9,828 bases of DNA from a virus (Monodnaviria > Loebvirae > Hofneiviricota > Faserviricetes > Tubulavirales > Inoviridae). Position 1 is the first letter of the stretch; each line of letters opens with the position of its first letter. A program made the position numbers and the translations under genes. The stretch lies in IMG/VR virus record IMGVR_UViG_2529292910_000001. One strand, 5' to 3'. Under the pieces are notes generated by a model. The model saw only the letters and a program-made list of their open reading frames with translations, did not search any database and was not told the DNA's origin. This document shows positions 74-9,828 of this stretch, in pieces.

Positions 74-619
74 ATGAACAAGCAAACAACAACATCTCTT
101 TCTTTTCCTGGTGGTAGAAAAGAAAGCATTGCTGAGCGTCTGAAAAGGCTGATTGGCTCCCGCAGCGTCAGAGCTGCAGCAAGAGATTGGGGGCTTTCAT
201 TTTCAACACTAAACAATTATCTGTCTCGTGGCACTGAGCCATCCTTAAGTGTCGCCCTTCAGATTGCGTCTATCGAAGGAGTAAGTGTTGAGTGGCTATG
301 TGGATTCAGTGATGCATCACAAGTGAATCGGTGTGAGATCAAGGAAAATCAAGATGAAAGCAAGAAGATAATTATGACGATTATCAGCGCACTTGATGAA
401 AAAGACTTAGAGCAGCTATCGAAAAATTTGGTTCTGAATGGAGCCAAGTACTTAGCTCGGTTGTTAGAGCCTGAAAATCAAGATCTAATCCGCTTAGAAG
501 GAAGGAAAAGAATAGCTGCATTACAGCTTGAAGGTATGTCTGACGAACGCGTCAGAGAGATTTTGGAAGAAACTGAGAGAAGTCGCAAATCTAACGCGGT
601 AGAACCAAAAGCGGGTTAA
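74..619 (+). CDS. HTH DNA-binding protein with phage cI-repressor-like N-terminal domain and acidic, probably helical C-terminal region (181 aa)
   Basis: ORF with good RBS. The N-terminal segment (ERLKRLIGSRSVRAAARDWGLSFSTLNNYLSRGTEPSLSVALQIASIEGVSVEWLCG) fits the lambda cI/Xre-type helix-turn-helix pattern. The C-terminal half is rich in E/K/R/L. A stem-loop plus T-run overlaps the stop codon. Confidence 0.55.
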   Translation: MNKQTTTSLSFPGGRKESIAERLKRLIGSRSVRAAARDWGLSFSTLNNYLSRGTEPSLSVALQIASIEGVSVEWLCGFSDASQVNRCEIKENQDESKKIIMTIISALDEKDLEQLSKNLVLNGAKYLARLLEPENQDLIRLEGRKRIAALQLEGMSDERVREILEETERSRKSNAVEPKAG

Positions 620-860: not shown

Positions 861-1211
861 TTATACTATACCCAAACCGGAGGCCGTATTGCTTCCTTCA
901 TCCAGTTTCAACAAAGTATTATTTTCTGCATCCTCAATACCGTTAAATGCAACCCGAACCCCCGTTGTCCCTTTGCTGCATTCACTTAACGTAATCTGAA
1001 AAGGGACGGCTGGACTTGTGCTACCGGTCGTTGGAAATTGTCTGGCACTGTTTTTTTGGAGATCTACGGTAAAATTAAGCGAATCCGATGAGACTGTGCA
1101 GCCATAATCGAGGACGCGCCCGCTAATTTTAATAACGCTATCTGCGGATAAAGCAGAATAGGTGGTTAACCCCAGACATAAACCGAGGAAAATAATGTTA
1201 TTGTATTTCAT
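861..1211 (-). pseudogene. Fimbrial subunit-like protein, probably C-terminally truncated (116 aa)
   Basis: N-terminal signal peptide (MKYNNIIFLGLCLGLTTYSALSA) and a pilin-like body with Cys residues. It starts 13 nt after the usher stop with RBS AAGGAA. At 116 aa it is about 60 aa shorter than typical chaperone-usher subunits and lacks the usual C-terminal beta-strand motif; the downstream sequence in any frame is unrelated. Confidence 0.5.
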
Positions 1212-1224
1212 AATCTATTGTTCC

Positions 1225-2460
1225 TTAGCGACAGATTGCTGTCTGCTGGTTCAGTAAGGTACCAGGAGAAACTTCAGGAAGCTTGTACTCGACAATACAG
1301 TTTGAGTTTTTATCTTTGCTCCATGAAACCTGTAATTGCCCTGACTGTGGAAGTCCAGTCAGATAAACCTGACCATTTTCCGCGACAATGCTGCCATTTT
1401 TATTCTCTCCGTGTGTGACAATTGCACCGAATGGAACGCTCTTATTACCGTACTTCAACGTCATTAATACTTTCCCGCCGATTTGTGCATTAAATGTTGC
1501 TCTGGCAATAGCACCGTGAGTTGGGATGACAGTGACCACGGTTTCATCCAGTTCAACATTATCTGCAAGGGAATTCGCGTTAAGAGCAACACGGTTTTCT
1601 CTATATTCTGTCGCAAATGGTAATATGGCATAGCCACGCCAGTCGGTATGAATTCCGGTCTGGTTCTCTATTTTGACATTATCAGCACCAGGAGCCTTAA
1701 CCAGAACCATTGTGTCGCCCAGCGGCTGTCCAAAGGTGATGCCATCAGCATGAGCAATAATCCCACCACTCATTCCGTAATAAATCTGGCTGCTGTCACC
1801 ACTCCGACTGTAACCGACATTAGTATTACCATAAGCTCCACGATAATTAAGAGAACTGTAACCACTGGTGCCAGACGATGTATTACCTCCGTGGGTGTTA
1901 CCGACCTGAACGCTATAATTCAGGTTATTATCCGGCAGCAGAGTGCCATAAACCCCCGATAGATTGGTCATGCCGCCTTTCAAATCGTTTGACATACTGT
2001 AACTGGCGTTTGAATTACGAAATGCCGACTGACTGTCTGTACGCATCCAATGACTGAAGGGAACATTAAGCGTAAAAGCGAGTAAATGATCCCGATCGTT
2101 TTGCCATATATTATTGGAATAGCTGTAATTCAGCGAAGTCGTAATATCACCAAACGGCACATTTAATCCAAATGATATTTGCTGGTCGCTGCGTGACGTG
2201 TTCCAGTAACTTTGGCGACTGGCACTGAAAAATGTCGTACCGTAATTTCCAAGCTGCTGAGAGATGCTTATTTGTTCCTGACCACGCTTACTGTAGAACA
2301 GATTAAAATAATCAATAAATTGTGTCTGCTCATTGGTGTCTCCGGTAGGAGGCTTGACGGTGTAACCACTCATTCGACTGTAGGCACTGTCGGATAAGTT
2401 ATAAAAACCTTGCGTAGAATAGCGATATCCTGCGACCTGGATATTGGTTCCACAACAAGT
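1225..2460 (-). pseudogene. ydeT: Fimbrial outer-membrane usher, C-terminal fragment (N-terminal ~half missing)
   Basis: The 382-aa ORF (1225..2373) has usher C-terminal-domain character. The frame stays open upstream to a stop at 2461..2463 with no start codon and usher-like sequence (NIQVAGYRYSTQGFYNLSDSAYSR), so the N-terminal half is deleted. The symbol is assigned from context only: in E. coli K-12 an usher fragment of about this size sits beside an AraC-like fragment next to dif, as I recall it. Not sequence-verified. Confidence 0.7.
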
Positions 2461-2705
2461 TTATTGCTGCACTTGTTGAAGAGAGTATTTGCAAAAACAT
2501 TTTATGTCGCTAAATAACATGACGATTTCATTATGCATGTTATTTATAAACCGTGACTAAACAGAATATTATTGCGAACAAGGGAAGTGTCAGGAAAGGT
2601 CAAGAGCTACCAATGGTTAATATGGCTATAAATCATTAGCTATGGTTAATGTTTGCTTGCTGAAACTAACACCGAATTGCTCTAAACAGATAAGTGCAGG
2701 GTTTA

Positions 2706-2966
2706 TTAAAGCTGTCCGACAGACTTTCTTAACCTGGTAATATCTCTCTTGGGTGACTCTCCAAACATCCGCGAATATTCCCGACTGAAATGGGATAGCT
2801 TTCGTAACCGACAGCATAGGCTGCTGTGGTGACATCGTAATGTTCATTCAGCATCTGTCGCCTGACTTCATTGAGACGTAGCCATTTCTGATACCGGAGT
2901 GGACTCATTCCCGCTTGATCCGTCCTTAAATAAGTAACAGCACCCTCTGGTGTTTTCGTATGCAGT
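2706..2966 (-). pseudogene. yneL: AraC-family transcriptional regulator, C-terminal HTH fragment carrying a frameshift
   Basis: Minus-strand translation gives MSPLRYQKWLRLNEVRRQMLNEHYDVTTAAYAVGYESYP, then after a -1 shift in a CCC run HFSREYSRMFGESPKRDITRLRKSVGQL. Joined, this is the classic AraC second HTH signature (GYES.SHFSR.F...FG.SP). There is no N-terminal sensor domain; a stop lies immediately upstream at 2969..2971. Symbol is by K-12 context, unverified. Confidence 0.55.
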
Positions 2967-3121
2967 GTCTATGCGACAGACACTGCGCTCTTAGCATGGG
3001 GCAGGGAATAACCAGGCTATTTCTCCATGCACAGGCCAATTATGAAAGAGGAGAGGCTTAAGTTCTTGAACCCTGAACGAATAACGACTACCAGAAAAGC
3101 ACTTCGCATCACTCAGACATG

Positions 3122-3149
3122 ATTTAACATAATATACCTTATACGCACT
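3122..3149. other. dif: dif-like XerC/XerD site-specific recombination site; probable prophage attachment junction
   Basis: The minus strand reads AGTGCGTATAAGGTATATTATGTTAAAT, against the E. coli dif sequence as I recall it, GGTGCGCATAATGTATATTATGTTAAAT. The XerD arm is identical, the central hexamer has 1 mismatch and the XerC arm has 2. It lies between the chromosomal pseudogenes and the first phage gene. Confidence 0.7.
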
Positions 3150-3239
3150 GCGGTAAGATACGGTGAAAAACAGCCTGAAAGCCACACCGAATATCCTCAC
3201 CAGAACGCTGTCAGTCATCAATTTCATCAACATGCCACA

Positions 3240-6146
<2,907 letters not shown>

Positions 6147-6157
6147 TTATTATTACA

Positions 6158-7879
<1,722 letters not shown>

Positions 7880-8013: not shown

Positions 8014-8241
8014 TTAACTGGCTTTTTTAATGGATTTAAGAACCATACTTACGCCAGCATAACAGATATATACACCCACAGCAGCAGCGCCAACAGCAAG
8101 AATAATTCCAATTACAGACGTGAAATTAATAGCAGTCTGAAGAGAGGAAAAATCAATAGCCGTAGTAGTCGGCGTTGTAGTCGGACCCGCCGCAAGAGCA
8201 GAGCCAGAAGCTAAAACAAGTGGTGCCACAAAAAAAGACAT
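8014..8241 (-). CDS. Major coat protein pVIII-like (precursor ~75 aa)
   Basis: Signal peptide ending ALA, a short mature N-terminus, one transmembrane helix (VIGIILAVGAAAVGVYICYAGV) and a basic C-terminus (KSIKKAS). This is the classic inovirus major coat architecture. ATG at 8239..8241 with an in-frame GTG at 8242..8244. Confidence 0.8.
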   Translation of the reverse strand: MSFFVAPLVLASGSALAAGPTTTPTTTAIDFSSLQTAINFTSVIGIILAVGAAAVGVYICYAGVSMVLKSIKKAS

Positions 8242-8308
8242 CACCGATTTTTTTACAGATAAAACCTTCTCTTTAACAGAAGATAAAAACCTTTAAAAAT
8301 CATAATTA

Positions 8309-8870
<562 letters not shown>

Positions 8871-8882
8871 CCTCCCCCTCTT

Positions 8883-9170
8883 TTAACCAATATCCTCACA
8901 ACGGGAAATAAGACCATTGCAAAGCGAAATATAACGCGTCAAAACTGTCATTTCATAAGAGTCAAGACGAGCATAAGAGTCATTCAATAATTCAACACTA
9001 TGACGAAGACATGACCTGAAAAGATAAAGCCCCCTAAAATTATCTCCTGACTCAAAATCAATAACAGCCTGCTTATAAAGCTCAATAATAAGGTCTAGTT
9101 TCAGTCGAACAGAACCCGATTTACTGTGTTCTTCAAATGAAGAAATTGGTCGAATTGGACGAAAAGTCAT
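8883..9170 (-). CDS. Hypothetical protein (~95 aa) immediately downstream of gV
   Basis: ATG at 9168..9170 preceded by AAAGGTGG; an in-frame GTG at 9177..9179 is the track start. Composition looks helical/soluble. No motif recognised. Confidence 0.5.
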   Translation of the reverse strand: MTFRPIRPISSFEEHSKSGSVRLKLDLIIELYKQAVIDFESGDNFRGLYLFRSCLRHSVELLNDSYARLDSYEMTVLTRYISLCNGLISRCEDIG

Positions 9171-9185
9171 AAACACCACCTTTAA

Positions 9186-9533
9186 CTATTTAGAACCTGG
9201 AACCGTCAAAGGAAAAAGAACAAGTTTAAAAGCAAATTCGATACTGCCAAAGTTACCTACAGTATAAGACGATGGATGAATAAGATATTTACCCGCAGCA
9301 TAAGGTGGTTGTCCCTCATCAAGAGAAACCTTACATTCAATCACCTGACGACCAAGTCTGACAACGCCAACCTGAGAATACATAATCCCCTTAACAGGAG
9401 AGCCAAGAGAATCAACAACTACCAGCCCTGTTTTCTTATCTTTCTTGTCATATTCAAAAGAATCAACACGAACATCATCTTCCTCAAATTCAATAATAAC
9501 AAGATAACGCTCATCAACATTAATCATAGACAT
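9186..9533 (-). CDS. ssDNA-binding protein, gene V protein-like (115 aa)
   Basis: The C-terminal ~60 aa (KVSLDEGQPPYAAGKYLIHPSSYTVGNFGSIEF) align with the M13 gVp core as I recall it (KITLDEGQPAYAPGLYTVHLSSFKVGQFGSLMI). Strong SD AGGAG 8 nt before the ATG. Has an extra acidic N-terminal ~25 aa relative to Ff gVp. Confidence 0.8.
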   Translation of the reverse strand: MSMINVDERYLVIIEFEEDDVRVDSFEYDKKDKKTGLVVVDSLGSPVKGIMYSQVGVVRLGRQVIECKVSLDEGQPPYAAGKYLIHPSSYTVGNFGSIEFAFKLVLFPLTVPGSK

Positions 9534-9549: not shown

Positions 9550-9828
9550 TTAACCTACTGCATAAAGTGGAGTTACACGCTGGCGATACCAGTCAGGCAT
9601 AACTGTTTCCTGCATTGATATTTCACGCATATTATGAATAACAACACCGGGGGTTTTACTGGCATCGTATTCCATAGCAATATCAATGCCGATTTTACGA
9701 AGGCGGGCACGGTGTCGTCTGATTTGACCACCATTAAAATCAAATCGCTTGCCACACATCCACGAATAAGCAATAAAAGCCGTAGCATTTGCTGCTTTAA
9801 CATTATCAACAATGCCATTAGTTATTAA
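9550..9828 (-). CDS. Probable replication initiation protein (pII-like), C-terminal portion only; gene continues past the window edge
   Basis: The frame ending at the TAA at 9550..9552 is open all the way to position 9828 (…ITNGIVDNVKAANATAFIAYSWMCGKRF…LYAVG), so the ATG at 9759 is internal. The assignment rests on position upstream of gV; no rolling-circle motif is visible in this fragment. Confidence 0.45.
   Translation of the reverse strand, partial: LITNGIVDNVKAANATAFIAYSWMCGKRFDFNGGQIRRHRARLRKIGIDIAMEYDASKTPGVVIHNMREISMQETVMPDWYRQRVTPLYAVG

Follow-up and report, generated by a model that had tools for sequence, protein, structure and literature searches.

A hybrid dif-like site as the probable chromosome-side junction of a defective inovirus prophage in Escherichia coli

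Filamentous phages that integrate at the dif site of E. coli have been known since CUS-1, and the UPphi phages have since added to their number (PMC7307601, PMC2731167, PMC4266046). The classes of IMEX and the strand-exchange rules that they follow have also been described (PMC4246890). According to these rules, phages of the CTX and VGJ types exchange the XerC strand only, and the phage XerC arm is thereby joined to the whole host central region (PMC4246890). The attP(+) of CTXphi is a forked hairpin formed from an inverted pair of dif-like sequences (PMC4246890), and the same has been suggested for YpfPhi, which carries an inverted pair of XerC/D sites (PMC4266046).

Here, we have analysed a stretch of 9,828 nt, called the window throughout, in which inovirus genes adjoin the E. 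coli terminus locus at a dif-like sequence of mixed origin. This site is very probably the 3′-end, chromosome-side junction of a now-defective inovirus prophage, an IMEX, that was inserted at dif via XerC/XerD.

The hybrid site and its flanks

The window is the reverse complement of positions 9706-19533 of the 20.3-kb source locus (L003; contig AIFZ01000020.1, assembly GCA_000249675.2). AIFZ is an accession of the E. coli DECA collection, and the sister assembly AIFY shows the same arrangement. The features of the window that are needed below are the following:

861-1211, minus strand: truncated ydeS, 116 aa left (Pfam Fimbrial)
866-3121, no strand assigned: chromosomal flank on the XerD side, with ydeS, ydeT and the yneL-like region; 99.9% identity to E. 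coli chromosomes
1225-2373, minus strand: truncated usher ydeT (Pfam Usher/PapC_C)
within 866-3121, no strand assigned: yneL-like HTH pseudogene region (gene annotation)
3122-3132, minus strand: XerD-binding arm TTATGTTAAAT; chromosomal, 11 of 11 against dif and contiguous with the chromosomal flank
3133-3138, minus strand: central hexamer GGTATA; G12 (window position 3138) is phage-type, GTATA is common to phage and dif
3139-3149, minus strand: XerC-binding arm AGTGCGTATAA; phage, identical to half-site C of related phages and satellites
3150-3424, minus strand: phage intergenic region downstream of the secretin gene, including a conserved non-coding block at about 3208-3424
3425-4705, minus strand: secretin (pIV-like), 426 aa (Pfam Secretin 1.2e-25, Secretin_N)
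4708-5832, minus strand: Zot/pI-like assembly ATPase, 374 aa (Pfam Zot 1.2e-24)
5850-6137, minus strand: DUF2523 small membrane protein in the pVI position, 95 aa (Pfam DUF2523 1.7e-07)
6158-7852, minus strand: candidate pIII-like adsorption protein, 564 aa, from its position in the inovirus gene order; no Pfam match
8014-9179, minus strand: small phage ORFs of 76, 148 and 98 aa, coat or unknown function (ORF list and L003 gene calls); no Pfam match
9186-9533, minus strand: ssDNA-binding protein (pV-like), 115 aa (Pfam Phage_DNA_bind 2.2e-12)
9550-9828, minus strand: 3′ part of the replication gene (pII/X C-terminal domain; Pfam G2P_X_C on L003 9448-9984), running off the window

The hybrid site (junction J1; window 3122-3149, minus strand) reads AGTGCGTATAA GGTATA TTATGTTAAAT, the whole 28-mer being AGTGCGTATAAGGTATATTATGTTAAAT. 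The dif sequence of E. coli K12 is printed in PMC2731167 as GGTGCGCATAA TGTATA TTATGTTAAAT (that is, GGTGCGCATAATGTATATTATGTTAAAT), and the same sequence sits between yneL and hipA in a prophage-free K-12-like chromosome, which confirms the dif sequence used in the original prediction. Alignment with this reference revealed three mismatches (25 of 28 positions identical), two of them in the XerC arm at positions 1 and 7 and the third at position 12, the first central base, while the XerD arm was identical to dif at 11 of 11 positions; the perfect XerD half-site and the three differences within the XerC half and the central hexamer were therefore as predicted. Identity to the dif of BL21 was 26 of 28. 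The layout (XerC arm, 6 bp, XerD arm; 11-6-11) and the terminus locus are also those of K-12 and BL21. A scan of the whole window for matches to dif with at most 3 mismatches returned the hybrid site alone, none of 200 dinucleotide shuffles of the window contained such a match, and no second dif-like site was present in the window at up to 8 mismatches. In the complete 20.3-kb locus, scanned with a threshold of at most 9 mismatches or one arm within 1 mismatch, three weak matches were found beyond the hybrid site, with 9-12 mismatches overall and 4-7 mismatches in their XerD arms.

On the XerD side, window positions 866-3148 were 99.9% identical to thousands of E. coli chromosomes, where they correspond to the ydeS-ydeT-yneL side of the dif locus. 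Chromosomal homology stopped exactly at the outermost base of the XerC arm. Chromosomes free of prophage have the gene order ydeT, yneL pseudogene, dif, hipA, hipB, autotransporter, lsrK. The XerD-side flank of the window is identical to that of the prophage-free K-12-like and BL21 chromosomes, in which dif occupies the same position as the junction and is followed by hipA. At its left end (positions 1-865; L003 18915-20348, continuing to the left) the window also contains the end of a Mu-like transposable prophage inserted in the fimbrial gene ydeS. This end carries a repressor-like HTH ORF (74-619, plus strand), and Stx phage records contain inserts, labelled ‘Mu-like phage’, to which it is about 80% identical; the genes for a Ner-like HTH protein and a MuA-type transposase follow just past the left edge of the window.

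To the right of the hybrid site, the phage genes form an inovirus gene set, all of it on the minus strand. The Zot protein showed at most 37% amino acid identity to any deposited phage, and megablast of the whole window against deposited phages gave a Mu-like match at the left end only and none for the inovirus. A search for an integrase gene among the retained prophage genes of the window, in the satellites and in L015, a relative of 7.9 kb, was negative, and Pfam detected no XafT-like (DUF3653) activator of XerD among the ORFs of the window, the satellite or L015. The nearest relatives of the morphogenesis module, from secretin to pIII, were located at L009 9184-17209 and L032 6993-15036 with 86-88% nucleotide identity. 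Both occupy the interval from sanA to yeiS, with a phospholipase D gene and an IS110-family transposase as neighbours, and the copy that was scanned, L009, contained no dif-like site. From this sanA/yeiS setting without a dif-like site in L009 it follows that one and the same structural module is found together with another system of integration. The 564-aa pIII-like ORF contains an 18-nt tandem repeat (6552-6772, about 12 copies, 81% matches), which on the coding strand specifies a Gly/Thr-rich linker and whose copy number probably varies, since relatives align there at several offsets.

Between the junction and the secretin gene, the block at 3208-3424 was conserved at 76-92% in otherwise dissimilar dif-integrating E. 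coli inoviruses and satellites. It showed no significant ssDNA fold (z -1.08) and no intact conserved ORF; to call it an origin or a packaging signal would be a guess. We also considered as genes, and rejected, the ORFs beside the site (3163-3384 on the plus strand, 3240-3428 and 2991-3233 on the minus strand). A Pfam scan of ORFs 3163-3384 (plus) and 2991-3233 (minus) gave no match, and the region beside the site is judged not to be coding because the two ORFs analysed lacked a third-position excess and 1-nt indels occur among the relatives.

Origin of each base and route of insertion

To assign each base of the site to phage or host, we aligned the window with chromosomal dif (K-12-like and BL21) and with the phage contig L015, all in the phage (+) sense:

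Window: ...cgtatcttaccgc AGTGCGTATAA GGTATA TTATGTTAAAT catgtctgag...
K-12-like: ...ggtttatatt GGTGCGCATAA TGTATA TTATGTTAAAT catgtctgag...
BL21: ...ggtttatatt AGTGCGCATAA TGTATA TTATGTTAAAT catgtctgag...
Phage contig L015: ...cgcatctcattgc AGTGCGTATAA GGTATA TGCCGTTATGT tgaatcggg...

In this three-way comparison the XerC arm of the hybrid site, G12 and the flank next to them are those of the phage, and the XerD arm and its flank are those of the chromosome. The original prediction of a prophage junction at dif is thus upheld. The IMG/VR contigs L014-L016 carry AGTGCGTATAA GGTATATGCCGTTATGTTGAAT (half-site C, GGTATAT GCCG...), then the same flank as the window. Two bases of the hybrid site, T7 and G12, are diagnostic of the phage; the phage origin of G12 is read from relatives that are about 72% identical in their genes and nearly identical in the site-C region. 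Since G12 is phage-type and positions 13-18 (GTATAT) are common to both parents, the crossover is placed between positions 12 and 19. This interval leaves out the XerC cleavage point (between 11 and 12) and takes in the XerD cleavage point (between 17 and 18). The original prediction had ascribed the junction to XerC-mediated exchange between dif and attP. The combination of a phage XerC arm with a host XerD arm agrees with that proposal, but such an exchange would leave T12, whereas the base found is a phage-derived G12 and the crossover falls in 12-19. The phage central base kept in the junction therefore means that exchange was not limited to the XerC strand. Textbook CTX/VGJ models assume exchange of the XerC strand only; the hybrid junction departs from them, as do, independently, two other strains described below.

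We then considered whether the site could be a naturally diverged chromosomal dif allele that merely adjoins a prophage integrated by another route. Position 1 G>A does occur as a natural dif allele: the dif of prophage-free BL21(DE3) (L031 2531-2558) is AGTGCGCATAATGTATATTATGTTAAAT, that is, it has the AGTGCGCATAA XerC arm, and REL606, ATCC 8739 and strain C have the same sequence. Because of this, A at position 1 is not by itself diagnostic of phage origin. The other two differences, however, are identical to the phage half-site; T7 was absent from dif in all prophage-free complete genomes examined, G12 was found at dif in no prophage-free genome among 5,426 complete E. coli genomes, and no complete E. 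coli genome had G12 at dif outside phage junctions. In addition, the phage flank starts exactly at the XerC arm and no integrase was found among the retained prophage genes. With these facts against it, a natural allele is an extremely remote prospect. The B-type dif AGTGCGCATAATGTATATTATGTTAAAT of prophage-free strains equals, letter for letter, the junction left by hairpin-1 phages (see below), and its A1 may be either a natural polymorphism or a scar of earlier phage traffic.

The exact hybrid site with the flank of the window occurred in none of the 5,426 complete E. coli genomes, the nearest matches being two strains with GATATA junctions, and a search of metagenome contigs for the exact 28-mer was negative. 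When species-representative genomes (596 Gb) were scanned with an 18-mer, 13 matches appeared in unrelated taxa; they were discarded, since a degenerate 18-mer should match about that often by chance in a collection of this size.

In relatives that share the half-site and flank with the window, the attP hairpins, which have been deleted from the prophage of the window, are present and fold strongly. Two inverted dif-like pairs about 90 nt apart lie between tandem copies in L012 (strain cM8a) and L013 (strain 700481) and are also found in L014-L016 (coordinates: L012 23406-23680, L013 19722-20017, L015 around 3150-3345). Each pair forms, in the packaged (+) strand, a long CTX-like forked hairpin made of an XerC-arm stem, a bulge of 5-6 nt on one strand, an XerD-arm stem, a GC clamp and a small loop. 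The 296-nt hairpin region has a minimum free energy of -88.1 kcal/mol (z -13.8) and gave no match to the phage collection. Hairpin 1 has the central bases TG beside the XerC arm, matching dif, and hairpin 2 has GA or GG there, which do not match the TG of dif; from this difference two target specificities in one element would follow. Site C is the top-strand half of hairpin 2, AGTGCGTATAA G(A/G)TATATGCCG TTATGTTGAAT. Read in the relatives as an 11-6-11 duplex it is AGTGCGTATAA G(G/A)TATA TGCCGTTATGT, with mismatches at 5 of the 11 XerD-arm positions. The window site agrees with site C in its XerC arm, in G12 and in the flank on the phage side.

A 3.66-kb satellite-like element forms tandem arrays of up to 4 copies at dif (L012 20000-34500 in cM8a, L013 16450-23400 in 700481 and L011 31700-42275 in JNE112863). 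Each copy encodes a pII/X replication protein, an ssDNA-binding protein, a 201-aa double-HTH protein and small ORFs, and has no morphogenesis genes. These dif satellites of E. coli recall the RS1/TLC satellites of Vibrio.

Junctions in other E. coli lysogens were compared with that of the window. In strain Sx181-0-1 (L010), the ydeT-side junction is AGTGCGCATAA followed by TGTATA TTATGTTAAAT and the hipA-side junction is GGTGCGCATAA followed by TGTGTT ACACGTTATGT, the pure product of an XerC exchange. Strain S21EC has the same ydeT-side junction, as does strain 300709, where a full attP lies between tandem copies. A separate feature of L010 is a set of three imperfect direct repeats of about 290 bp (19564-20385) between the dif junction and the conserved intergenic block; these repeats are absent from the window. 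In cM8a and 700481, the junction is AGTGCGTATAA GATATA TTATGTTAAAT and the internal site C is AGTGCGTATAA GATATA TGCCG..., so that the central region of the phage has been kept in full, including two bases specific to the phage; this is an independent parallel to the window. Their hipA-side junction is of the hairpin-1 type (GGTGCGCATAA TGTGAT/TGTGAC ACGCG...), as are all the hipA-side junctions recovered in complete genomes. In JNE112863, canonical dif is followed after about 55 nt by an intact hairpin 2.

These data bear on how the window junction arose. A single XerC exchange between dif and attP would have produced AGTGCGTATAA TGTATA TTATGTTAAAT, to be changed later by a chance T12>G mutation. 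In its favour, phages of the CTX and VGJ types as a rule exchange the XerC strand alone (PMC4246890), and this accounts for the junctions of L008, L010 and L002. Yet the phage half-site of the relatives has precisely this G at position 12, the GA kept in cM8a and 700481 would require two coincident mutations, and hairpin 2 offers GA or GG against the TG of dif where the rule for XerC exchange needs a match (PMC4246890). As the two parallel strains make a chance T12>G unlikely, we regard a single XerC exchange as highly improbable.

A crossover interval that contains the XerD cleavage point and not the XerC one would be accommodated by a one-step, TLC/GGI-like reaction in which the double-stranded replicative form recombines with dif through site C, with XerD exchange first. 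The duplex site C, with 5 of 11 mismatches in its XerD arm, also resembles attP-TLC (PMC4246890). Such a reaction predicts, however, a site-C-type junction beside hipA, GGTGCGCATAA plus G(A/G)TATATGCCG..., of which there were none among the 5,426 complete E. coli genomes, and the ORFs of the window, the satellite and L015 include no DUF3653/XafT-like protein. The end that would be informative, on the hipA side, has been deleted in the source genome. We consider this one-step route rather unlikely.

The central bases of hairpin 2 could instead reflect a serial replacement, in which an earlier element turned dif into a G12-type site and the present phage then integrated in CTX style through hairpin 2, leaving the junction unchanged. 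The paired G-A/G-G bases of hairpin 2 do fit a G-type target and not TG, and in the tandem arrays of cM8a and 700481 a complete hairpin 2 is restored between one copy and the next. Against serial replacement, a first event like that of the preferred history (below) is still required to make the G-type site, the window holds no direct trace of an earlier element, and the hipA-side junction that would decide has been deleted. This possibility is a minor one.

We therefore tentatively favour a history in two steps, which is the most economical reading and the most likely of those weighed here, if still short of an even chance. In the first step, integration in CTX style through hairpin 1 by XerC would have given AGTGCGCATAA TGTATA TTATGTTAAAT, with site C about 150 bp further in. 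In the second, another Xer event would have recombined the regenerated, functional dif with site C, deleting the spacer and leaving the present site; this could have been an XerD-first exchange, or a complete XerD plus XerC reaction with segregation of the heteroduplex. The arrangement in JNE112863, taken as the ‘before’ state, and the hipA-side junctions of the hairpin-1 type only were counted in favour of this two-step history. The XafT-like (DUF3653) XerD activator that was not found in the proteins tested was counted against it. With about 150 bp between the two sites, their recombination may depend on an exchange between sister chromosomes. The two steps are pieced together, because the states come from different strains and not from a process observed.

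The deleted end and the present dif site

An IS1 element lies at L003 8686-9453, about 250 bp past window position 9828. It has the interior of hipA on one side and the interior of the phage pII gene on the other and shows no target duplication, an arrangement that reveals an IS1-adjacent deletion. Lost with it are 1,091 bp of hipA, the hipA-side junction, the hairpins or attP with the regulatory region, and the 5′ part of pII. hipB has been left without hipA. No credible dif-like site that could represent the second prophage junction, which is present in intact relatives, was found in the 20.3-kb source contig. Because of this IS1-associated deletion, the prophage is unable to replicate or to excise by Xer and is fixed in place; and since the deletion took the other junction, the hybrid is the only credible dif-like sequence in the 20.3 kb. 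Note that the hipA-side junctions of this phage family offer no usable XerD arm as duplex DNA.

By its position, its intact XerD arm and elimination, all read from sequence, the hybrid site probably serves now as the dimer-resolution site of the chromosome. XerD, activated by FtsK, would bind the intact arm, and XerC would bind the variant arm. The altered central base should not hinder strand exchange, because the two sister copies are identical. As for the variant arm, the plasmid site cer has T at the position matching C7. E. coli strains deficient in dif are viable, and survival of the strain is for that reason no proof of dif function. C7 is conserved in the chromosomal dif sites quoted in PMC2731167, and C7>T is not among them. 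Insertion of YpfPhi is reported to reconstitute a dif at the 3′ end of the prophage (PMC4266046), which is consistent with the hybrid as a working dif. How far dimer resolution tolerates changes in the XerC arm and the central region is put to a natural test by the hybrid site.

A broader possibility concerns a group of E. coli inoviruses and their satellites with two tandem CTX-like attP hairpins, of which the first (TG) would match canonical dif and the second (GA or GG) only a dif already modified by phage. Once such an element has integrated, another Xer event would convert the host dif to the phage type in its XerC arm and central region. We hold this generalization to be doubtful. If it were true, dif would be ‘reprogrammed’ in a lineage-specific capture of the site that alters which later phages can integrate at the sole dimer-resolution site, and the window would be a fossil of dif rewriting, in which a phage-type dif has been fixed by the IS1 deletion.

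Comparison with known IMEX

The element shares features with the IMEX of the CTXphi type, including YpfPhi of Yersinia pestis and CUS-1 of E. coli O18:K1:H7. As in these, an inovirus is found at dif, here with no integrase among its retained genes, and at the 3′ (secretin) end insertion restores a dif-like site whose XerD arm comes from the host. Forked (+)-strand hairpins with a bulged central region are also present in the relatives of the window, which likewise form tandem arrays. It differs from them in that the window junction is phage-type at position 12 and is not the product of an XerC-only exchange with canonical dif; an XerC step followed by a second event is compatible with the junction as it stands. 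Moreover, the relatives have two tandem hairpins instead of one, and the window Zot is only 26% identical to that of CTXphi.

TLCphi and the gonococcal genetic island (PMC4246890, PMC5357621) combine a good XerC arm, a central region that matches dif on its XerD side and an XerD arm that is degenerate, like site C, and in both cases, as here, the XerD cleavage point lies within the crossover interval. In contrast to these IMEX, no XafT/DUF3653 protein was found, the reciprocal junction is absent from complete E. coli genomes, and the half-site is at the same time part of a CTX-like hairpin. With the VGJphi type the element has in common a presumably Xer-dependent insertion at dif and a junction of phage XerC arm and host XerD arm; sites of the VGJ type, however, match dif and cross over on the XerC side (PMC4246890), whereas the window differs at the central base on that side.

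Compared with the chromosomal dif of E. coli, the site has the same locus (ydeT/yneL side), the same 11-6-11 layout and an identical XerD arm, but T7 and G12 are phage-derived and the neighbour on the hipA side has been replaced by phage DNA. UPphi phages (PMC7307601) likewise use E. coli dif for integration; tandem copies are frequent and are separated by a repeat of only part of dif, and the same was seen in L008. UPphi and the other dif inoviruses have another gene content than the window, and those of L008, L010 and L002, compared here as such and not as UPphi, keep the TGTATA of the host.

Taken together, the element is of a known kind, an IMEX, and nothing in it overturns current understanding. 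Its unusual points are the crossover on the XerD side and the loss of every dif-like site but the hybrid from the surrounding 20 kb. Specialist interest is limited to this XerD-side crossover and to the double-hairpin attP of the relatives, and the locus adds one more natural case of a filamentous phage hijacking XerCD at E. coli dif.
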